DNA of 64,000 bases from a virus: positions 1-64,000 of the IMG/VR virus record IMGVR_UViG_3300032092_000005; one strand, 5' to 3'. Under the pieces are notes generated by a model, which saw only the letters and a list, made by a program, of their open reading frames with translations, had not been told where the DNA came from and ran no database searches. Position numbers and translations under genes: made by a program. Positions 34,741 through 43,188 of the stretch are shown here, in pieces. Position 1 is the stretch's first letter, and each line of letters opens with the position of its first letter.

Positions 34741-34940
34741 GCAGAGGATTAGAAATTGATTATGAGACTGCGGATCGAATTACAGTCTTGACTTTAAAAG
34801 AACATGTAGAATATCTGAAAGAGGAATTGCGTCAGCACGTTGAACAAGAAACGTGGATGCATTCAGAAGATGTAGTTGATACTCCTATACGTATTTCTCA
34901 ACTAGAAGCCGTCATCAAGTATTTTGGTGGTTCGGTATAA
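34737..34940 (+). CDS. Hypothetical protein
   Basis: Coupled to upstream paralog. Confidence 0.55.
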   Translation: MSRGLEIDYETADRITVLTLKEHVEYLKEELRQHVEQETWMHSEDVVDTPIRISQLEAVIKYFGGSV

Positions 34941-35017
34941 AAATATTTTTAAAAATGTATAGTAATTTACATTCCGAATGCATATATACTATACATGGTT
35001 ATACATTATGAAAAGAG

Positions 35018-35311
35018 TTGAATGTGAATGAAATTGAAAATGAAATTTTGCTGATTGCACAAGAAGAATGCGCAGAAGTAACGCAAGCAATTAGTAAAGT
35101 TTTTAGATTCGGCATTGATGGTAAACACTTAGGTGTAACCAACAGAAGCCGATTAGAAGAAGAGTGTGGAGATTTGCTATGCATGATTTCCCTAATGATC
35201 GATAAAGGTATCATTAGCGAGACTGCAACATATCAAGCATCCATGGATAAAAAAGATAAGTTAATTAAATGGTCTGGTATTTTTAAGGAAGAAAAAGTTG
35301 AAACAACCTAA
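35018..35311 (+). CDS. MazG-like NTP pyrophosphohydrolase
   Basis: QEECAEV.QA.SK..RFG...LEEECGDL. Confidence 0.75.
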   Translation: MNVNEIENEILLIAQEECAEVTQAISKVFRFGIDGKHLGVTNRSRLEEECGDLLCMISLMIDKGIISETATYQASMDKKDKLIKWSGIFKEEKVETT

Positions 35312-35465
35312 GAGTTTATCGTTAGTCAGTATAGCAAGACATATGCCAAAATCATGGCAGGGATGCACACGCTATAATATGGCAACGGCAACATTGGGCG
35401 CGGACTTTAATAACTCCCTTATTGCTGAACCTAGTCAGAGGCTTTTTGAAAGCGCAGTCGAATAA
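35298..35465 (+). CDS. Putative 55-aa leader peptide containing all 20 amino acids
   Basis: AAGGA SD 8 nt before TTG; overlaps antiterminator strand. Confidence 0.55.
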   Translation: MKQPKSLSLVSIARHMPKSWQGCTRYNMATATLGADFNNSLIAEPSQRLFESAVE

Positions 35466-35524
35466 CACAACACCCGACTACCCTACCAAAAAGCCTCAAG
35501 ACAAAAAATCTTGAGGCTTTTTTT
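35438..35524 (+). terminator. Intrinsic terminator with competing antiterminator
   Basis: AAAAAGCCTCAAGA/TCTTGAGGCTTTTT stem + T-run; 35438-35448 also pairs 11/11 with 35487-35497. Confidence 0.75.
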
Positions 35525-35527
35525 ATT

Positions 35528-35629
35528 GTGACTTAAAAACAACACTTCTTAAAAAAAGTGTTGACAACCAAGAAGATGCATGTTATCATACGTGTATCGA
35601 TTGAGAAATCAATCACTTGCTCCTTAACA
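35528..35629 (+). promoter_or_regulatory. tRNA-array promoter with boxB-like hairpin and boxA
   Basis: TTGACA-17-TATCAT (extended TG); GATTGA-GAAA-TCAATC; TGCTCCTTAACA. Confidence 0.7.
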
Positions 35630-35649
35630 ATTTGTATCCATATTTTTAT

Positions 35650-35723
35650 TCCCGAGTAGTGTAGTGGTAACACACCAGACTTTGACTCTGTTATTGTAAG
35701 TTCGATTCTTACCTCGGGTGCCA
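35650..35723 (+). tRNA. tRNA-Gln(TTG)
   Basis: Cloverleaf, CT-TTG-AC loop, TTCGA, CCA. Confidence 0.9.
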
Positions 35724-35725
35724 GT

Positions 35726-35800
35726 GGTGATATAGCACAGTGGAAGTGCAACTCCTTCATACGGAGTAGGTCGTTGGTTCGAATCCAACTATCACCACCA
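35726..35800 (+). tRNA. tRNA-Met(CAT)
   Basis: GGTGATA/TATCACC, TT-CAT-AC loop, CCA. Confidence 0.85.
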
Positions 35801-35840
35801 TATAAAAACACATTCCTATTTTTAGTGTGTTTCTATATGG

Positions 35841-35959
35841 TTGACATGCAATCATTACCGTGTTACAATAACACATCAACAAAAAAAGGAAGCGACATGA
35901 AACGTTCAGGTAAACGATAGTGTCAACTTTTGATCCCATGTATGGTCTTAAGTTGGCAC
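35841..35959 (+). promoter_or_regulatory. Promoter + minigene MKRSGKR (35897-35920) + hairpin
   Basis: TTGACA-17-TACAAT; AGGA SD; GTGTCAACTT/AAGTTGGCAC stem. Confidence 0.65.
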
Positions 35960-35986
35960 GTAAAAGAAAATTCAATACGTAACAAC

Positions 35987-36060
35987 CACTCTAAACTTTG
36001 GCGGTGAAGTCCTGCCTCTTAAGCAGCGAGAATTGAGTTCGAATCTCAAAGAGTGGACCA
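35987..36060 (+). tRNA. tRNA-Lys(CTT), atypical D-arm
   Basis: CCACTCT/AGAGTGG, CT-CTT-AA loop, TTCGAAT, ACCA. Confidence 0.8.
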
Positions 36061-36065
36061 TACAT

Positions 36066-36141
36066 GGGATCGTGGTGAAATGGTTATCACAGCAGACTTT
36101 TAATCTGCCAGTTTCGGGTTCGAGTCCCGGCGGTCCTACCA
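36066..36141 (+). tRNA. tRNA-Lys(TTT)
   Basis: GCAGA-CTTTTAA-TCTGC, CCA. Confidence 0.92.
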
Positions 36142-36225
36142 TATAAAAACACATTAAGCACCTCGTACGGTGTTAGGGAAGTTCATGCATGGCGACTCGG
36201 CGCAGGCTATAATGTGTTTCTATAT

Positions 36226-36300
36226 GGTGACGTTAGTTTAGTGGCAAAACCGCGGGTTGTGATTCCGCTATCATGGGTTCGATTCCCATACGACACCCCA
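36226..36300 (+). tRNA. tRNA-His(GTG)
   Basis: G-1, TT-GTG-AT loop, C73-CCA. Confidence 0.88.
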
Positions 36301-36311
36301 AAGATTTTTAT

Positions 36312-36386
36312 GCCTCGTTAGCTCAGTGGTAGAGCAGTGCTTTTACACGGCGAAGGTCGGCAGTTCGAAACTGTCACGAGGTACCA
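36312..36386 (+). tRNA. tRNA-Val(TAC)
   Basis: TT-TAC-AC loop, CCA. Confidence 0.88.
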
Positions 36387-36391
36387 ATAAT

Positions 36392-36467
36392 GCCAGGATA
36401 GCTCAGTTGGTAGAGCACTTGTTTGAAGCACAAGGTGTGGGCGGTTCGATCCCGTCTCCTGGTACCA
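36392..36467 (+). tRNA. tRNA-Phe(GAA)
   Basis: CTTGT-TTGAAGC-ACAAG, CCA. Confidence 0.88.
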
Positions 36468-36477
36468 GAAATGATAT

Positions 36478-36552
36478 GTGCCTTTAGTAAAATGGATATT
36501 ACACAACGCTACGAACGTTGGAGTGGGAGTTCGATTCTCTCAGGGCGCACCA
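36478..36552 (+). tRNA. tRNA-Arg(ACG)
   Basis: CAACG-CTACGAA-CGTTG, CCA. Confidence 0.9.
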
Positions 36553-36562
36553 AGAGATATAT

Positions 36563-36654
36563 GGAAGATGATGCAGCGGGGTTGGTCCTGCGACTGGCCT
36601 TGAAAACCAGGTTCTCAGAAATGGGATGGGGTTCGACTCCTCCGTCTTCCGCCA
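36563..36654 (+). tRNA. tRNA-Ser(TGA)
   Basis: CT-TGA-AA loop, long variable arm, GCCA. Confidence 0.88.
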
Positions 36655-36655
36655 G

Positions 36656-36695
36656 TTGACAATGAAGCTTGATTGTGATACAATAGCTTCATTGT
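36656..36695 (+). promoter_or_regulatory. Promoter for Y-like RNA/DUF2828 unit, inside an 11-bp inverted repeat
   Basis: TTGACA-17-TACAAT; ACAATGAAGCT/AGCTTCATTGT. Confidence 0.7.
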
Positions 36696-36703
36696 AGAGT
36701 TTT

Positions 36704-36869
36704 AGGATAGGTACAGCAACCCACTAATACCGAATCGTTTAGTCACTGTGGTAAAAAACTGGAGTACGGAGTCTTGACCGAGTACGTTGAAGGTTTGACA
36801 CTGAAACATACTAAGCAAGGAGAGTTTCGATTTTCTCTCTGTAAACAAAAAGTAGACAACTATCCTGTT
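36704..36869 (+). ncRNA. Y-RNA-like scaffold 1
   Basis: AGGATAG/CTATCCT terminal stem, GTACAGCAA, internal T-arm-like hairpin. Confidence 0.65.
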
Positions 36870-36884
36870 ATATTTGAAAGTTTT

Positions 36885-37017
36885 AGGATCGGTACAGCAA
36901 CATTAATCTTTACTAAAAGATGGTTCGAGCTAGTTTAAGGCAATAACACCCTTATTTCTTGAACCCACGTGAGTTTCGAATTCTCACTCGAAAGAAAAAG
37001 TAGAAACCGATCCTGTT
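36885..37017 (+). ncRNA. Y-RNA-like scaffold 2
   Basis: AGGATCGGT/ACCGATCCT stem, GTACAGCAA, GTGAG-TTTCGAATT-CTCAC hairpin. Confidence 0.65.
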
Positions 37018-37024
37018 GTATTTT

Positions 37025-37149
37025 AGGTTAAGTTCCGCAAAACAAAATATGCAAACATAAACCGAAAGTCTGGTTCGATTCCAGCTAGGGCACGTAGTGT
37101 CTTAGTAGTGTAATGGCAGCACATTGGTACGCAAAAAGTTTAACCTGTT
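37025..37149 (+). ncRNA. YrlA-like RNA (scaffold 3 with circularly permuted tRNA domain)
   Basis: AGGTTAA/TTAACCT stem; T-arm, closed acceptor hairpin, D-arm in permuted order. Confidence 0.75.
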
Positions 37150-37167
37150 GATTTGAAAGGAAATATT

Positions 37168-38607
37168 ATGTCAACATTTGTAGAAGCCGTAGTAAACCAA
37201 GAAGCCCGTACTGCCAATGGCATGAAGGCACGTAAGTCCACTGCTAATGCGGTTGTAGATTTATTCTACAATGCAGGTGCAAGCCGTGGTAAGAATATTG
37301 TTCCTGCATTCGCAGCAGCATTTGCGCAAGACCGTGATCTAGCATTGCGCGTAGCCGCCTGGTTGCGTGATGTGCGTAGCGGTGCAGGTGAACGTCAATT
37401 GTTCCGTGATATCTTAGGGTATCTGGAAAACAATGATCGTGTAGCAGCAAAGGCACTTGTTGCAAAGGTTCCTGAATTGGGACGTTGGGATGACTTGTTC
37501 ATCTTCAATTCTAAGGAAATGAAGGAAGCAGCATACACATTGCTTGGTGACGCATTGCGTGAAAAGAATGGCCTTGCAGCTAAGTGGACACCTCGTCAAG
37601 GCAAGCTTGCAGCAGAAATTCGTACATTCTTCGGAATGTCGCCAAAGTTCTACCGCAAGTCTCTAGTTGAAATGACTAACGTTGTTGAAACTAACATGTG
37701 TGCAAAGGACTGGGACGGGATTAACTTCTCGCATGTTCCATCTGTAGCAGCATCGCGGTACAAGAAGGCATTCAACCGTAACACTCCAGCTTATGCAGCA
37801 TACGTTGCAGAGTTGATGAAGGATCCAAAAGATCGTACAGTTGAAGTGAAGGTTAATGCTGGTGCAGTGTACCCATATGATGTACTGAAAGGTCGCATCT
37901 CTGGTTATGGTGTGTCGTTTGACAAGACAGAATTGGATCTGATCCAAAAGCAATGGGAAGCACTACCTAACTTTGTTGGGGATGCAAACATTCTGCCTTT
38001 GGTTGACGTTTCTGGTTCTATGACTTGTCCAGCAGGTGGATCAGGCTCAAAGTCTAAGCTGACTTGCCTGGAAGTTGCAGTCTCTCTGGGATTGTATCTT
38101 GCAGACAAGAACAAGGGTAAGTTCAAGGATACGTTCTTGACTTTTTCTAACAAGCCAGAGTTGATGACTTTGAAGGGCAACATCAATGAGAAGATCAGCC
38201 AAATGGTTTCTTCTGATTGGGGAATGACTACTGACTTGAATCGTGCGTTTGACAAAATCCTTAGTGTAGCAATTAAGGGCAATGTGCCAAACAGTGAAAT
38301 GCCAGAAATGTTGCTGATCCTTTCGGACATGCAATTCAATTCTTGTGTTGCACATGACGATTCGGCTATCGAAATGATGGCACGTAAGTACGAAGCAGCA
38401 GGATACGCCTTACCAAAGGTTGTGTTCTGGAACTTGAATGCTGCATACGGCAATGCGCCTGTGAAGTTTGACAAGTCTGGCACTGCATTGGTTTCGGGGT
38501 TCTCTCCAGCCATTGTTAAGCCTCTGCTATCTGGCGACATGGAAGACTTTTCACCAGAGGCTGTGATGTTGAAGACAATCATGGATGACCGTTATACTGT
38601 GATTTAA
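37168..38607 (+). CDS. DUF2828-family helical + vWA protein (Ro60/TROVE-like)
   Basis: RDVR.G.GER..FR, GRWDDL, AAKW.PR, FS.VPS.A, DVSGSM MIDAS, SDMQF, VFWNL. Confidence 0.85.
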   Translation: MSTFVEAVVNQEARTANGMKARKSTANAVVDLFYNAGASRGKNIVPAFAAAFAQDRDLALRVAAWLRDVRSGAGERQLFRDILGYLENNDRVAAKALVAKVPELGRWDDLFIFNSKEMKEAAYTLLGDALREKNGLAAKWTPRQGKLAAEIRTFFGMSPKFYRKSLVEMTNVVETNMCAKDWDGINFSHVPSVAASRYKKAFNRNTPAYAAYVAELMKDPKDRTVEVKVNAGAVYPYDVLKGRISGYGVSFDKTELDLIQKQWEALPNFVGDANILPLVDVSGSMTCPAGGSGSKSKLTCLEVAVSLGLYLADKNKGKFKDTFLTFSNKPELMTLKGNINEKISQMVSSDWGMTTDLNRAFDKILSVAIKGNVPNSEMPEMLLILSDMQFNSCVAHDDSAIEMMARKYEAAGYALPKVVFWNLNAAYGNAPVKFDKSGTALVSGFSPAIVKPLLSGDMEDFSPEAVMLKTIMDDRYTVI

Positions 38608-38625
38608 AAATCTAAGTATAACTCC

Positions 38626-38650
38626 GAGGATTCGAAAGAGTCCTCATTTT
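38626..38650 (+). terminator. Hairpin/terminator after DUF2828 gene
   Basis: GAGGATTC-GAAA-GAGTCCTC then ATTTT. Confidence 0.55.
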
Positions 38651-38687
38651 GAAGTGTGCTGATAGTGCATTTCAAAATGAAAAATAA

Positions 38688-38775
38688 GGAAGACTCCCAT
38701 AATGGTATTGGAGCGGCTTGCTAAGCCGTCGGTCGTTAAATCGGCTTCGGGGTTCGAGTCCCCGGTCTTCCGCCA
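38688..38775 (+). tRNA. tRNA-Ser(GCT)
   Basis: TT-GCT-AA loop, long variable arm, GCCA. Confidence 0.9.
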
Positions 38776-38851
38776 TACACAATGTACGCTATAATGTACA
38801 TTAACAGTGGTTTTTGTTCATAATGGGCGTTTTTATGCCTCTTATGACAGT

Positions 38852-38955
38852 GTTGTATTTTTGCAACAGACACAAAAAAAGTGTTGACAAATCTTCTGAT
38901 CCTGTTATACTAGATTCTGTTGAGTTGATAGTGATTCAACAAAAGTTCTTTAAAA
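38852..38955 (+). promoter_or_regulatory. Second tRNA-array promoter with hairpin and boxA
   Basis: GTTG-N8-CAAC, TTGACA-16-TATACT, GTTGAG/TTCAAC hairpin, AGTTCTTTAAAA. Confidence 0.7.
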
Positions 38956-38972
38956 AGTTAAGTGTGATTTTT

Positions 38973-39047
38973 GCTCAGTTCGACTATCGGTCAGGTCGCT
39001 AGACTTTCAATCTGGAAAGACGGGTTCGACTCCCGTACTGAGCACCA
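38973..39047 (+). tRNA. tRNA-Glu(TTC)
   Basis: CT-TTC-AA loop, CCA. Confidence 0.9.
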
Positions 39048-39163
39048 TATTAAAGCATATTTCAGGTTGGGCTAGATTCGCGGTTTAGCTATTTGGGTAT
39101 CATGGACTAGGTAATTACTAGCACCGGTACTAAGATACGAAATGTGTTTTAATATGGTAGTTT

Positions 39164-39240
39164 GCCCTGGTGACGGAATTGGTATACGTACTGGTCTTAG
39201 AAACCAGGTTTTGCGAGTTCGAGTCTCGCCTAGGGCACCA
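39164..39240 (+). tRNA. tRNA-Leu(TAG), short variable loop
   Basis: CTGGT-CTTAGAA-ACCAG, ACCA. Confidence 0.88.
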
Positions 39241-39252
39241 AAAGTATTTTAT

Positions 39253-39329
39253 GCGTCTGTAATTCAATTGGACAGAAATTCAGTCTTCGAAACTGAAAGT
39301 TGGGAGTTCGAATCTCTCTAGACGCACCA
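39253..39329 (+). tRNA. tRNA-Arg(TCG)
   Basis: TCAGT-CTTCGAA-ACTGA, CCA. Confidence 0.88.
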
Positions 39330-39423
39330 AATTAAAACATACTGCTTGCCTGACTGCAAAAGTCGTGGTAAACTACAAGAGAAAGAGGTTCGAATCCTCG
39401 GGACTGGTAGTGTGTTTTAATTT

Positions 39424-39498
39424 GGGCTGATGGTATAATTGGGAACACAGTGGCCTTGCAAGTCACAGTTGGGGGTTCGATTCCCCCTCGGTCCACCA
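39424..39498 (+). tRNA. tRNA-Ala(TGC)
   Basis: G3:U70, CT-TGC-AA loop, CCA. Confidence 0.9.
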
Positions 39499-39499
39499 A

Positions 39500-39692
39500 A
39501 TCTCGTTACTACTTTCGTTAAAGTAGCGTTTGATTAGCGATAGAGATCCGGTGGCAGAAAACCGTTAGCGAGGTCAAACTCAGGCTCTGATAGGCAGAAT
39601 CTCAACTGCACACAGACACACAGAATAAATGGAGATGGACAGAGTAACTGCTCAATTAAGGGCTGGCGTAGAACCCAGTAGCTTATCCTATT
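39500..39692 (+). ncRNA. Unidentified ~190-nt structured RNA
   Basis: No convincing ORF; several nested stems and possible pseudoknots, between two tRNAs. Confidence 0.5.
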
Positions 39693-39695
39693 TAA

Positions 39696-39770
39696 GGCTC
39701 GTTCATATAATGGTCATTATCGCGGATTGTCTATCCGTAGATGGGAGTTCGATTCTCCCACGAGTCGCCA
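39696..39770 (+). tRNA. tRNA-Asp(GTC)
   Basis: TT-GTC-TA loop, GCCA. Confidence 0.9.
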
Positions 39771-39778
39771 GTTTTAAT

Positions 39779-39852
39779 CCTCCGTTAGCTCAATGGTAGA
39801 GCAATCGGCTGATAACCGATAGACAGAAGTTCAATTCTTCTACAGAGGACCA
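39779..39852 (+). tRNA. tRNA-Ile(GAT)
   Basis: ATCGG-CTGATAA-CCGAT, ACCA. Confidence 0.88.
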
Positions 39853-39863
39853 AAAAGTATTTC

Positions 39864-39947
39864 GGAGTGAATGGAACAATGGTGTTCTAGCCGGCTGTAA
39901 CCCGGTGGCCTTCGGGCAGGTAGGTTCGATCCCTACTCACTCCACCA
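39864..39947 (+). tRNA. tRNA-Tyr(GTA)
   Basis: CT-GTA-AC loop, variable arm, ACCA. Confidence 0.88.
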
Positions 39948-39953
39948 GATTTT

Positions 39954-40016
39954 AGAATGCGTTCAGCAAAAAAATACATTGAACTTTTAATTCAAACCGT
40001 AAAAAAGCATTCTGTT
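39954..40016 (+). ncRNA. Y-RNA-like scaffold 4 with Lys-UUU anticodon arm
   Basis: AGAATGC/GCATTCT stem, GTTCAGCAA, TTGAA-CTTTTAA-TTCAA. Confidence 0.65.
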
Positions 40017-40038
40017 GTTTACATATATAATACGTTGT

Positions 40039-40114
40039 GTACGTGTGCGCCGAACGGCTAGGTAGCGGATTGCAAATCCGTATAATGCAGGTTCGAATCC
40101 TGTCACGTACTCCA
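40039..40114 (+). tRNA. tRNA-Cys(GCA)
   Basis: TT-GCA-AA loop, U73-CCA. Confidence 0.88.
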
Positions 40115-40128
40115 CACAAAAGATTTAT

Positions 40129-40207
40129 TCCGTAGAACCCGAGCATGGTGCATGGGCTTGACTGTTAATCAATGTTTAGCTGGGATCGTTACCCAGATAC
40201 GGAGCCA
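40129..40207 (+). tRNA. tRNA-Asn(GTT), atypical T-loop
   Basis: CT-GTT-AA loop, GCCA; T-loop ATCGTTA. Confidence 0.8.
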
Positions 40208-40217
40208 AAAGTTATAT

Positions 40218-40293
40218 TGCGGGTAGTGCCCAGTCAACAGTCCAGTCTCATAAGCTCGGATCATCGGAGGTGCGAATCCTTCACCCGCAACCA
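40218..40293 (+). tRNA. tRNA-(f)Met(CAT), degenerate D-arm
   Basis: TGCGGGT/ACCCGCA, CT-CAT-AA loop, ACCA. Confidence 0.7.
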
Positions 40294-40298
40294 GTTTT

Positions 40299-40356
40299 AG
40301 GATCAGTTCAGCAAACTTAAAAATTTCTCTTGTTCGGAAAAAAAGTTGATCCTGTT
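40299..40356 (+). ncRNA. Y-RNA-like scaffold 5
   Basis: AGGATCA/TGATCCT stem, GTTCAGCAA, TTTCT-CTTGTTC-GGAAA. Confidence 0.6.
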
Positions 40357-40363
40357 GTTTTTC

Positions 40364-40437
40364 GCCCTATTAGTATAATGGTATTACACCTGTTTTGTAA
40401 TCAGGTTACGGCAGTTCGATTCTGTCATGGGGCACCA
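40364..40437 (+). tRNA. tRNA-Thr(TGT)
   Basis: TT-TGT-AA loop, ACCA. Confidence 0.88.
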
Positions 40438-40447
40438 AGTCATTTTT

Positions 40448-40521
40448 GCGGGGTTCATTTAATGGTAGGATTTCAGCCTTCCAAGCTGATAGTGCGAGTT
40501 CGATTCTCGCACCCCGCTCCA
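40448..40521 (+). tRNA. tRNA-Gly(TCC)
   Basis: CT-TCC-AA loop, TCCA. Confidence 0.9.
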
Positions 40522-40528
40522 ATATTTT

Positions 40529-40602
40529 CTCGGTGTGGTGAAATGGTATCACTCTTGGTTTGGGACCAAGGAGCGCAAGTTCGATTCTTGCCACCGAGAC
40601 CA
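40529..40602 (+). tRNA. tRNA-Pro(TGG)
   Basis: TT-TGG-GA loop, ACCA. Confidence 0.9.
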
Positions 40603-40610
40603 CAAGTTTT

Positions 40611-40673
40611 AGGATAGTTACAGCAAAAAACAAAGCTAACTATTGGTTGTCTAGCGACAAAAGCTATCCTGTT
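40611..40673 (+). ncRNA. Y-RNA-like scaffold 6
   Basis: AGGATAG/CTATCCT stem, TTACAGCAA. Confidence 0.6.
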
Positions 40674-40688
40674 GTTTAATGAGGCTAT

Positions 40689-41234
40689 ATGAAAAAATGT
40701 CCAAAGTGTAATAGTACACATGAAAAAAATGGAAATTTTTGTTCCAGAAAGTGTGGTAATTCTAGGACATGGTCTGAAGAAGATAAGAAAAAAAAATCAG
40801 ATTCTGCTAAAAAATACTACGATGAAAATGTCCACCCAGGATTAGGAAAACCTGGATGGAAACATAGTGATGAACAGAAATTACTCAAAAAGAAATTGTC
40901 TCTTGAAATGTGGGATAAAATTGGTAGAAAATCGTCTGAGCATTATAGACTTGCAAATATTCACACAGTAAACAAATACAGAGCAAGAAGGTATGATGCT
41001 ATAACCGAATCTACAGACTTAAATCTAATTAAAGAGATTTATAAGTACTGTCCTAAAGGTTATGAAGTTGACCATATAATAGCTCTTGCATGTGAAGGCG
41101 AACATCATCAAGATAATTTACAATACCTTCCAGCAATAGAAAATAGAAAGAAAAACAAAACACAAAATTATAACAAGGATCTTGCCGTTCGTTGGCAAGA
41201 TGTATTAAAAATAAGTACAAGGAGTTCACTATGA
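40689..41234 (+). CDS. HNH endonuclease (putative homing endonuclease)
   Basis: CPKC..FCSRKC; EVDHII.L..G.H..DNLQ.L....NRKK. Confidence 0.8.
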   Translation: MKKCPKCNSTHEKNGNFCSRKCGNSRTWSEEDKKKKSDSAKKYYDENVHPGLGKPGWKHSDEQKLLKKKLSLEMWDKIGRKSSEHYRLANIHTVNKYRARRYDAITESTDLNLIKEIYKYCPKGYEVDHIIALACEGEHHQDNLQYLPAIENRKKNKTQNYNKDLAVRWQDVLKISTRSSL

Positions 41235-41476
41235 GTAATGACGAAAAAGGTTCTAAGGCAAGACCGTTCAGCGTGTCTCAGCATGAATATGATACAAGAT
41301 GGGATGCAATTTTCGCAAGAGAATTGCAAGAAAAAGCACTTGATGAATTAGTTCGTGAAAGCGAACGATTAGGACTTTATGATATTCCTATTGTAGAAAA
41401 AGATTTTATAAATGCTAATACAATTTTAGAAATGCCCGGAACAATCGGTAGCGCAAAAGTTATTCTAAAAGGTTAA
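41231..41476 (+). CDS. Hypothetical protein
   Basis: GGAG SD; KGS..RP.SV...Y..RWDAIF. Confidence 0.55.
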   Translation: MSNDEKGSKARPFSVSQHEYDTRWDAIFARELQEKALDELVRESERLGLYDIPIVEKDFINANTILEMPGTIGSAKVILKG

Positions 41477-41477
41477 T

Positions 41478-42236
41478 ATGAGAATTGTGATTGTAACGGG
41501 CGGCTTTGATCCACTTCATAGTGGACATGTTGCTTACATTAAAGCAGCTAGAGAACTAGGCGACAAATTGATTGTCGGTATAAACTCTGATGAATGGCTA
41601 TCGCGCAAAAAGGGGCGTCCCTTTATGTCGTGGCAAGAACGTGCAACTATCGTTTCAGCTATCGCAGAGGTTGACAGAGTTATCTGTTTTAATGATGGTG
41701 ACAATACTGCAATTGATGCAATTCGAAAAGCTAAAAAGATTTTTCCTAATCATGATATCATCTTTGCAAATGGCGGTGACAGGACAAAAGAAAATATACC
41801 CGAAATGGTATTTGATGATGTAGAGTTTGTGTTCAGCGTTGGCGGTGATAACAAAGCGAATTCTTCTAGTTGGATTTTAGAAGAATGGAAAACACCTAAG
41901 ACAGAACGGACATGGGGTTACTATCGTGTACTGCATGAAGTCGGTTCACAGGTTAAACTAAAAGAGTTGACGGTAATGCCTAAAACATGTTTGAGTATGC
42001 AGAGACATGATCAACGTGCAGAGTTCTGGTTTGTAGCTGAAGGAGAAGCCACGGTGTACACCTTGAATGAAGCTTCAACTGATCAAGAAGTTAAATGTCA
42101 ATTAATTGCACATGAGCATACATTTATCAAAACAAACGAATGGCATCAATTATGTAATGAAACTACAGAGCCTTTAAAGCTCATTGAAATTCAATACGGC
42201 AAAGCTTGTATTGAAGAAGACATAGAACGGTTATAA
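41478..42236 (+). CDS. Cytidylyltransferase fused to mannose-6-P-isomerase-type cupin
   Basis: TGGFDPLHSGH, FANGGDR; R.WG.Y, LS.QRH..RAE.W, EIQ.G...EEDIER. Confidence 0.85.
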   Translation: MRIVIVTGGFDPLHSGHVAYIKAARELGDKLIVGINSDEWLSRKKGRPFMSWQERATIVSAIAEVDRVICFNDGDNTAIDAIRKAKKIFPNHDIIFANGGDRTKENIPEMVFDDVEFVFSVGGDNKANSSSWILEEWKTPKTERTWGYYRVLHEVGSQVKLKELTVMPKTCLSMQRHDQRAEFWFVAEGEATVYTLNEASTDQEVKCQLIAHEHTFIKTNEWHQLCNETTEPLKLIEIQYGKACIEEDIERL

Positions 42237-42239
42237 TAT

Positions 42240-42313
42240 ATCTCGCTAGTGTAACGGCAGCATACGGGTCTCCAAAACCCTTGGTGGGAGTTCGAATCTC
42301 TCGCGGGATGCCA
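42240..42313 (+). tRNA. tRNA-Trp(CCA)
   Basis: CT-CCA-AA loop, GCCA. Confidence 0.88.
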
Positions 42314-42319
42314 AATTTT

Positions 42320-42393
42320 GCGTGGTTAGTTAAATGGTAGAACCAAACGTTGCCAACGTTTAGACAGGAGTTCGATTCTCCTACCCCGCACCA
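42320..42393 (+). tRNA. tRNA-Gly(GCC)
   Basis: AAACG-TTGCCAA-CGTTT, CCA. Confidence 0.85.
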
Positions 42394-42448
42394 AAAACTC
42401 ACACTTGACAGAGTATCACTATGATGATACAATAGTCTATCAAATATT

Positions 42449-42523
42449 CTGGCGTTAGTACAATGGATAGTACAGTAGGCTTCTACCCTTCTAATGGGAG
42501 TTCGATTCTCTCACGCCGGACCA
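42449..42523 (+). tRNA. tRNA-Arg(TCT)
   Basis: CT-TCT-AC loop, CCA. Confidence 0.85.
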
Positions 42524-42530
42524 AAAATAT

Positions 42531-42616
42531 GCGAGTGTGGTGGAACGGTATACACAACAGACTTAAAATCTGTCGCCTTAACGGGCTTGCGGGTTCGAAT
42601 CCCGCCTCTCGCACCA
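42531..42616 (+). tRNA. tRNA-Leu(TAA)
   Basis: ACAGA-CTTAAAA-TCTGT, long variable arm. Confidence 0.9.
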
Positions 42617-42624
42617 AGTTTAGT

Positions 42625-42699
42625 GCCTTGGTAGCTTAATGGTAAAGCAGGCGACTCATAATCGCTTGAGTGGGAGTTCAATTCTCTCCCAAGGCACCA
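42625..42699 (+). tRNA. tRNA-Ile2/Met(CAT)
   Basis: GGCGA-CTCATAA-TCGCT, ACCA. Confidence 0.85.
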
Positions 42700-42717
42700 T
42701 TTAAAAAGGAAAGTAAA

Positions 42718-43188
42718 ATGCGTAAATTAGATTTGAATGAAGTTAGAGAATACATCGAATCGCAGTCACCTGATACAAAAATTTATATCGGATGTGATTC
42801 CGAAAGATTGAATGTTGCGGGACAATGGTACGCAGATTACATTTTAGCAATTGTAGTACACATTAACGGAAGACATGGATGCAAATTGTTTGGAGAAATC
42901 CAACGTGAACGTGACTATGACCAGAAAGTCAGTCGCCCTAGATACAGGCTAATGACAGAAGTTTATAAAATTTCTGAATTGTACCTAAAACTAGCCGATG
43001 TGCTTGAAGGTAGACATGTTGAAGTCCATCTGGACATTAACCCTAATGAAATGCATGGATCATCATGTGTTATCAACGAGGCAATAGGCTATATCAAAGG
43101 AACATGTAATGTAGTTCCTATGGTAAAGCCAAAGGCGTTTGCAGCATCATATGCAGCAGACAGATATAAGAGTTTACACGTAGCTTAA
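42718..43188 (+). CDS. YkuK-family RNase H-like protein
   Basis: KIYIGCDS, RLMTEV, EVHLDIN, KP.AFAASYAAD. Confidence 0.8.
   Translation: MRKLDLNEVREYIESQSPDTKIYIGCDSERLNVAGQWYADYILAIVVHINGRHGCKLFGEIQRERDYDQKVSRPRYRLMTEVYKISELYLKLADVLEGRHVEVHLDINPNEMHGSSCVINEAIGYIKGTCNVVPMVKPKAFAASYAADRYKSLHVA

Follow-up and report, generated by a model that had tools for sequence, protein, structure and literature searches.

Transcription attenuators that are governed by leader peptides include trpL, hisL, pheL, thrL and ilvL (ilvGMEDA), of which ilvL and thrL sense more than one amino acid. In these amino-acid operons a short leader and a terminator precede the regulated genes, an antiterminator overlaps the terminator, and the position of the ribosome decides which helix is formed. 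Here we describe a locus with the same parts in the DNA of an uncultured lake phage, namely in the first 64 kb of the 152-kb virus record IMGVR_UViG_3300032092_000005 (positions 1 to 64,000; the whole of this stretch is called the window). A small open reading frame (ORF) and the RNA that follows it are located at the head of a tRNA array and, judging from the sequence, we consider it likely that together they constitute a ribosome-mediated transcription attenuator that senses overall decoding capacity. An attenuator had already been proposed in an earlier reading of this DNA from its letters alone (the sequence-only reading), and the proposal is now supported by a family of related loci, in which the leader peptide nearly always contains 19 or 20 amino-acid types and the helices display compensatory changes.

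The leader ORF of the window (35298..35465; like the other features below it is on the plus strand, unless indicated otherwise) has 55 sense codons, comprises all 20 amino-acid types and has homologues in the relatives. Its TTG start is located 8 nucleotides (nt) downstream of a Shine-Dalgarno (SD)-like AAGGA (35285..35289), in a stretch that is identical in the closest relative, L197. The start of the ORF overlaps the final 14 nt of a gene for a MazG-like nucleotide pyrophosphohydrolase (35018..35311; phrog_4856, E 1.5e-21, and PF03819) and, because of this 14-nt overlap, the MazG-like gene and the leader ORF are probably translationally coupled. The 20th amino-acid type is reached at codon 44 and 37 distinct sense codons are used. 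Our recount agreed with the sequence-only reading in these figures, and the 55-codon ORF with its TTG start and AAGGA was present where that reading had placed it. Taken by itself, the window ORF is mildly unusual and only suggestive, the chance levels being P ~0.04 for 20 types in 55 residues and P ~0.018 for at least 37 codons in 55. The interpretation is backed by related DNA.

The last codons of the leader ORF contain region 1 (35438..35448), the 5′ strand of the antiterminator. Region 1 is the exact reverse complement, over 11 of 11 positions, of region 2 (35487..35497), which by complementarity and folding is both the 3′ strand of the antiterminator and the 5′ arm of the terminator. Between the two regions, an upper 5-bp stem with a 14-nt apical loop (35456..35479) holds the stop codon TAA (35463-35465) in its loop. 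The intrinsic terminator (35488..35528) consists of a hairpin of 14 pairs (35488-35522, with region 3 at 35509-35522) and a T-run, and the predicted folding energy of this hairpin is −18.6 kcal/mol (z-score −6.05). The antiterminator hairpin (35438-35497) exceeds the window terminator, with −22.8 kcal/mol and a z-score of −7.3. The 11/11 pairing and a terminator at 35488-35524 had both been noted before and were found again, and the folding of both states, which had been suggested as a check, gave the two energies just mentioned. Since region 2 is shared with the terminator 5′ arm, antiterminator and terminator are mutually exclusive. In the relative L007, the fold of lowest energy is the antiterminator, even when the terminator is part of the folded RNA. 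According to these folding models, the antiterminator would form first and would be at least as strong as the terminator.

Relatives of the locus were gathered via two independent anchors, the MazG protein and the boxA pattern. The same arrangement was present in more than 35 viral contigs and in one metagenome contig, all from uncultured sources, and these loci specify 30 distinct leader peptides of 32-55 residues. Codon-diverse leaders with covarying stems before tRNA arrays of related phages, for which the sequence-only reading had advised to look, were thus indeed found. The homologous small ORF sits directly before the first tRNA, irrespective of whether the upstream gene is MazG or another gene. 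In the family peptide alignment, only one Pro and one Trp are invariant, and identity to the window peptide ranges from 15 to 47%. Indels between the family leaders preserve the reading frame. With the window peptide as query nothing was found in viral contigs, and one relative, L197, was found in metagenome contigs. In a collection of 5.8 billion proteins, 18 called proteins match the leader, all of them metagenomic and unnamed. When records of cultured phages were searched at the DNA level with this region of the window and with the leader regions of two relatives, the leader found no match and the only hits were to tRNA-Gln.

The switch itself is conserved throughout the family. In every member, the final leader codons are complementary to the 5′ flank of the terminator and to the first bases of its 5′ arm, and the stop codon is located inside or beside the 3′ end of the ORF that takes part in this pairing. 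The resulting helix reaches up to ~22 bp. For the switch region, MAFFT did not keep the subfamilies in register and no structure was obtained with RNAalifold; the analysis is therefore based on a covariance-model alignment together with alignment-free tests. In the 11-bp core, 89.3% of the cells were paired versus 73.8% in shuffles (reached in 0 of 500 shuffles), and double-sided changes numbered 64 versus 25 in shuffles; these core statistics come from the covariance-model alignment, which favours the structure. The covariation score was 0.402, as compared to 0.166 in shuffles and at most 0.154 with the partner slid, and a compensatory change was detectable in 8 of the 11 core pairs. In an end-anchored count that is independent of the covariance alignment, 93% of the positions were paired versus 65% after partner shuffling. 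Furthermore, in the alignment-free test the mean pairing energy was −21.2 kcal/mol for cognate partners and −14.0 kcal/mol for non-cognate partners, and the cognate partner ranked first for most members.

The second property on which our reading is based is the amino-acid completeness of the leaders. All 20 types are present in 18 of the 30 distinct peptides, 19 types in nine and 18 types in three, while pieces of the same length from the phage's own long proteins contain 15-16 types on average. When 13 representatives with less than 50% identity were compared with such pieces, the Fisher combined P was ~1e-17. Trp, Cys and His are present in each of the 13 representatives, on average 8.5 amino-acid types occur exactly once per leader, and there are no codon runs. 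In a blind census of the window and 80 loci, which covered 1432 distinct six-frame ORFs of 32-46 residues, 12 ORFs contained 20 types and nine of these 12 were leaders. Because the relatives were not selected for completeness, they represent a replication of what was, in the window, a post-hoc observation.

Conceivably, completeness could have been passed on from a common ancestor. With the conserved sites held fixed, however, the variable sites supplied the missing types beyond chance in every informative pair (P 0.002-0.07). Shared ancestry is insufficient as an explanation because fewer types are obtained when the variable sites are filled with random residues, and the comparison of the sequences indicates that completeness is re-created and not merely inherited. 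In agreement with this view, the single Cys and the single Asp of the window leader are not at the positions that they occupy in L197, and Val occupies four different positions in four close, near-identical leaders.

From this anatomy we infer that the ORF is translated, that the two helices compete kinetically and that a physiological signal decides between them. Transcripts from an upstream promoter would reach the ORF via the MazG operon in the window, and from a dedicated consensus promoter in many relatives. Region 1, in the last codons of the ORF, and region 2, located 40-50 nt further on, would be able to form the long antiterminator hairpin that encloses the stop codon. If a ribosome paces the polymerase and has arrived at the stop codon, or close to it, by the time region 2 leaves the polymerase, region 1 would be enclosed by the ribosome, region 2 would pair with region 3, and transcription would end. 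If, on the other hand, no ribosome is present or it lags behind at any codon, region 1 would pair with region 2 first, no terminator would be formed, and the polymerase would read through. It would then load antitermination factors at boxA and transcribe the tRNAs. With a near-complete set of amino acids in the leader, phage tRNA synthesis should rise whenever almost any tRNA becomes scarce or is cleaved, or when the capacity for translation declines in general. Once decoding is restored, tRNA synthesis would be shut down again, so that the device would act as a homeostat. The three-segment geometry also predicts that an untranslated leader should be read through rather than terminated.

The spacing of the elements is largely compatible with this mechanism. 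Relative to the end of region 1, the stop codon is located between −6 and +7 nt (27 sequences). The distance from the stop codon to the terminator arm is 21-33 nt in all members, and the energies of the terminators range from −11.6 to −22.9 kcal/mol. In an E. coli reporter, a terminator was no longer hindered by a ribosome at the stop codon when the distance exceeded ~27 nt, while termination was abolished at 5 nt (PMC4824070). In view of this ~27-nt limit, a ribosome at the spacing of 21-33 nt would be well placed to disrupt the antiterminator and yet leave the terminator free to form.

The promoter layout varies between the relatives. In many of them a consensus promoter precedes the leader, which has either an SD sequence or an apparently leaderless AUG. 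In L090, L095, L108 and L161 the −10 hexamer is located only 6 nt from the ATG, which suggests that the leader mRNA of these four loci is leaderless. Among the distinct-leader loci that we tabulated, eight (L013, L029, L033, L036, L075, L108, L119 and L161) have a gap of just 11-67 nt between terminator and tRNA. As such a gap leaves no room for a second promoter, the array would be reachable only by read-through of the attenuator, and these eight relatives, as judged from their sequences, present the classical attenuator layout. The window represents a variant of this layout, in which the leader forms the final cistron of the operon upstream and is not preceded by a promoter of its own, and a second promoter follows the terminator.

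What such an attenuator would respond to can be stated with less confidence. In the widest reading it would be a pan-tRNA homeostat, in which one leader probes essentially every amino acid in real time, the depletion or cleavage of any host tRNA switches on the array, and recovery switches it off; we regard the chances for and against this reading as evenly balanced. The same even balance applies to the triggers that we envisage for it, which are starvation, phage-induced decay and anticodon-nuclease defence.

Various observations weigh against the attenuator reading or against its extension to a pan-tRNA sensor. With respect to the anatomy of the window, a distance of 14 nt separates the end of region 1 from the stop codon, and only the 3′ edge of this region would therefore be covered by a ribosome that terminates there; nevertheless, this ribosome would be located within the hairpin loop, as the stop codon is in the apical loop. 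Moreover, the strong promoter after the window terminator implies that the attenuator can only add to basal expression. An internal Met is present in only 21 of the 30 leaders. The invariant Pro and Trp codons, together with a conserved CGC in the leaders, point to a further constraint that is left unexplained by the model. Lastly, a metagenomic protein, P0007, matches the window leader at 98% identity over 73% of the query. By eye, its aligned part comprises the first ~40 residues, after which unrelated sequence continues to 94 amino acids; the ENA contig is 2288 nt long, and P0007 may have arisen by recombination or may be a chimera of the assembly.

The relation of the leader codons to the phage tRNAs is to be counted among these points as well. 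At the level of amino acids, the match between leader and array (20 types versus 19 isotypes) is trivial. At the level of codons, a Watson-Crick match to the phage tRNAs exists for 26 of the 55 leader codons (47%) versus 51% in the long ORFs of the phage, and with wobble for 41 of the 55 (75%) versus 78%. The window leader contains three Asn codons, and there is no phage tRNA-Asn. Likewise, the amino acids that are missing from leaders do not consistently track the missing tRNAs, although the results were mixed and most of the arrays compared are cut off by the locus ends. The leader of L009 lacks Phe and its array has tRNA-Phe, and the leaders of L036, L066 and L164 lack Val and their arrays have tRNA-Val. 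One codon-tRNA swap is suggestive: codon 23 of the leader is TCA in L005, L010 and L018 versus TTT in L013 and L017, and the ninth tRNA of the array is tRNA-Ser(UGA) in the former, where it replaces the tRNA-Phe(GAA) of the latter. This is, however, a single coincidence, with L009 as a counter-example. Finally, between one and six types per leader are found only in the last codons, where they would go unsensed because a ribosome stalled there would itself cover region 1. This leaves 14-19 types in the strict sensing zone.

These findings bear directly on an alternative that we consider unlikely, in which the attenuator reports only whether a ribosome is loaded and keeps pace with the polymerase, that is, the status of translation or of its coupling to transcription, while the amino-acid set is secondary or unrelated. 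Such a sensor would be in agreement with a three-segment design that reads through whenever no ribosome arrives, with a codon choice that is not tuned to the phage tRNA set, with amino-acid types placed where stalling could not be sensed, and with absent amino acids that do not track absent tRNAs. However, the presence of Trp, Cys and His in 13 out of 13 short peptides and the reappearance of lost types at new positions would serve no purpose in a plain coupling sensor. Furthermore, the diversity of the strict sensing zone alone is far beyond chance (Fisher P ~4e-13). These last observations argue for an attenuator in which the amino-acid set matters, as we propose.

Less probable still is a switch that does not depend on the ribosome but is set, for example, by a protein, a small molecule, an uncharged tRNA or cleavage of the long helix by RNase III, with the ORF being incidental. 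The strong covariation of the helix, and a length of up to ~22 bp that is sufficient for RNase III, could be accounted for in this way. So could the small 5-bp hairpin (35344..35359) that covers the invariant Pro and Trp codons and that spans these codons in most members. For this hairpin, we found no pairing with region 1, and a pause consensus at the right distance was present in 7 of 27 leaders, where ~12% would be expected by chance; it may be an RNA polymerase pause or a synchronising element. On the other hand, the frame, the start signals and a stop codon near region 1 were kept across very divergent sequences, frame-preserving indels included, and completeness is a property of translation and not of RNA. 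In addition, an Rfam scan of 34900-43000 (E up to 1) revealed no T-box or other cis-regulatory family at the leader, and only a weak minus-strand match to a miRNA model that is due to the long hairpin.

The ORF might also encode a working micro-protein. The pooled ratio of non-synonymous to synonymous polymorphism (pN/pS) was 0.57 for the leader versus 0.28 for the adjacent MazG gene, which means that the exact leader sequence is under looser constraint than the neighbouring enzyme. The leader peptides matched no family in Pfam or PHROG. In lake metatranscriptomes, contigs were found over 35248-35483, 35121-35424 and 35555-35705, and 35484-35554 is covered by none of them; they stem from RNA libraries that possibly contain DNA, and transcript ends or termination are not readable from them. 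A micro-protein, for instance an inhibitor or a regulator of small size, whose ORF simply ends at a common operon terminator while the complementarity serves mRNA stability, would fit a conserved ORF with invariant Pro and Trp, a pN/pS below 1 and, weakly, the coverage of the ORF by the RNA-library contigs. We judge it highly improbable, as identity between the peptides falls to 15-30% once the two residues and the tail constrained at the RNA level are set aside, neither a family nor a fold signal was found, antiterminator and terminator are mutually exclusive and covary, the ORF always precedes a tRNA array whatever its upstream neighbours, and completeness would be left unexplained.

Downstream of the attenuator, a second promoter (P2; 35561..35589) is located between the terminator and the tRNAs, from which expression would be independent of the attenuator. 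It matches the consensus at 11 of 12 positions and has an extended −10 region, which confirms the separate promoter that the earlier reading had placed at 35561. Promoters of the P2 type were found in some relatives and are missing from others. The −35 of P2 is overlapped by an operator-like dyad symmetry (35541..35563; no strand assigned), which was detected as a hairpin call on the minus strand and by eye. Dyads of the GTGTTG-N7-8-CAACAC type, with the order inverted in the window, overlap or precede the −35 of the post-attenuator promoter, and related dyads are located just upstream of the second promoter in L004, L041, L090, L095 and L175. The 'basal' tRNA promoter may itself be regulated.

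P2 is followed by a boxB-like hairpin (35599..35614; by eye) directly before an rrn-type boxA (35619..35633), which is identical to the boxA of the E. coli rrsH leader at 14 of 15 positions. The 15-nt reference boxA matched the E. coli rrsH leader exactly at the published position, and the order of the rrn leader elements and the role of boxA were taken from PMC10250234. In the relatives, boxA is conserved 11-20 nt ahead of the first tRNA. A second copy is present in the window at 38945-38959, with one mismatch to the degenerate boxA pattern. It belongs to a unit of a second promoter, a hairpin and a boxA-like element (38884-38959), which heads a tRNA-Glu sub-array without a leader ORF, and internal boxA copies were also found in L094 and L175.

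The tRNA array itself (35650..42699) contains 25 tRNAs that were identified by ARAGORN and one Ser-like tRNA. These cover 19 amino acids and not 20, as had been claimed, because ARAGORN and Rfam found no tRNA-Asn in the 152-kb record, inside or outside the window. The Ser-like gene (36563-36650) has a long variable arm, an encoded CCA and, by eye, a UGA (Ser) anticodon loop; it was missed by ARAGORN and scored 35.3 bits, which is sub-threshold, on the Rfam tRNA-Sec model. A mini-ORF of seven codons, two of them Lys codons (35897-35920), follows a promoter (35841-35869) and precedes two tRNA-Lys genes. In addition, the array includes a 484-amino-acid ORF (37153-38607), which by eye looks Ro60/vWA-like, and near which weak Rfam matches to YrlA (Y RNA-like) are located.

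Two further observations concern the relatives. In L047 (5090-5368), and at the same position in L053, an insert of ~280-340 nt is located between the attenuator terminator and tRNA-Glu. This insert is closed by a 17-nt inverted repeat and looks highly structured, and it gave no Rfam match. In L157, an unrelated ORF of 29 codons is present ~300 nt upstream of boxA and tRNA-Val; it comprises only 12 amino-acid types and abounds in Leu and Ser. Its layout is alike in that the stop codon adjoins a strand that competes with the terminator, and it may be a narrower, codon-specific relative of the attenuator.

The reason for the large tRNA sets of phages is a matter of debate, and the proposals include codon compensation, the replacement of decaying host tRNAs and the escape from tRNA-cutting defences (PMC10264068). 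Our full-text literature search retrieved no description of leader-peptide control of tRNA genes, and no account of how phage tRNA genes are regulated. The distinctive feature of the present locus is a single all-amino-acid leader at the head of the array, and the comparison of related sequences argues strongly for it. If the proposed mechanism is true, no earlier attenuator of tRNA genes would be known, and the leader would be the first to be selected for the variety of its codons instead of their repetition. The phage would then measure decoding failure directly and answer it with a supply of tRNA, and the views that phage tRNAs serve replacement and defence escape would be supported and made testable. 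In more general terms, leader-peptide attenuation would be extended to RNA-gene cargo and to selection for codon diversity, with the unusual evolutionary signature that single residues shift position while the full set is kept. The promoters, which are of the sigma-70 type, the intrinsic terminator and a boxA that resembles the one of E. coli should all be functional in E. coli, and the device might serve as a compact sensor of translation stress.

Among the known regulatory systems that resemble the locus, the rrn leader, with its boxB-boxA-boxC order and the NusB/NusE-dependent rrnTAC, is alike in that a hairpin and a 15-nt boxA (14/15 identical to rrsH in the phage) are located between a promoter and untranslated RNA genes; the difference is that the predicted phage boxA serves a tRNA array and is positioned downstream of an attenuator. 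In T-box riboswitches, as is proposed here, the supply of charged tRNA sets the choice between terminator and antiterminator. A T-box, however, binds one specific uncharged tRNA directly and without translation, whereas the phage locus matches no T-box model in Rfam, and a T-box riboswitch at the leader was ruled out by the absence of a match to the T-box covariance model over 34900-43000. The pyrBI and pyrE leaders resemble the phage device in that the distance between ribosome and polymerase is read at a terminator just after a short ORF (discussed in PMC4824070). There, a close ribosome blocks the terminator and causes read-through, the signal being UTP-dependent pausing of the polymerase, whereas in the phage device a close ribosome would remove the antiterminator, and termination is expected.

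The attenuators of the amino-acid operons remain the nearest counterparts. The sequence-only reading had likened the locus to the trp and his attenuators, and this held for the mutual exclusion of terminator and antiterminator, but not for the number of segments or for regulatory codon runs. The trp and his leaders have four RNA segments, and super-attenuation ensues when they are not translated; the phage leader has three segments, and read-through is expected in the same situation. The amino-acid-operon leaders have regulatory codon runs, whereas the phage leaders have 18-20 amino-acid types in 32-55 codons. Their cargo consists of biosynthetic enzymes, as opposed to a boxA and a phage tRNA array in the present case. 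In its mode of working, the phage device would come closest to the multivalent ilvL and thrL leaders.

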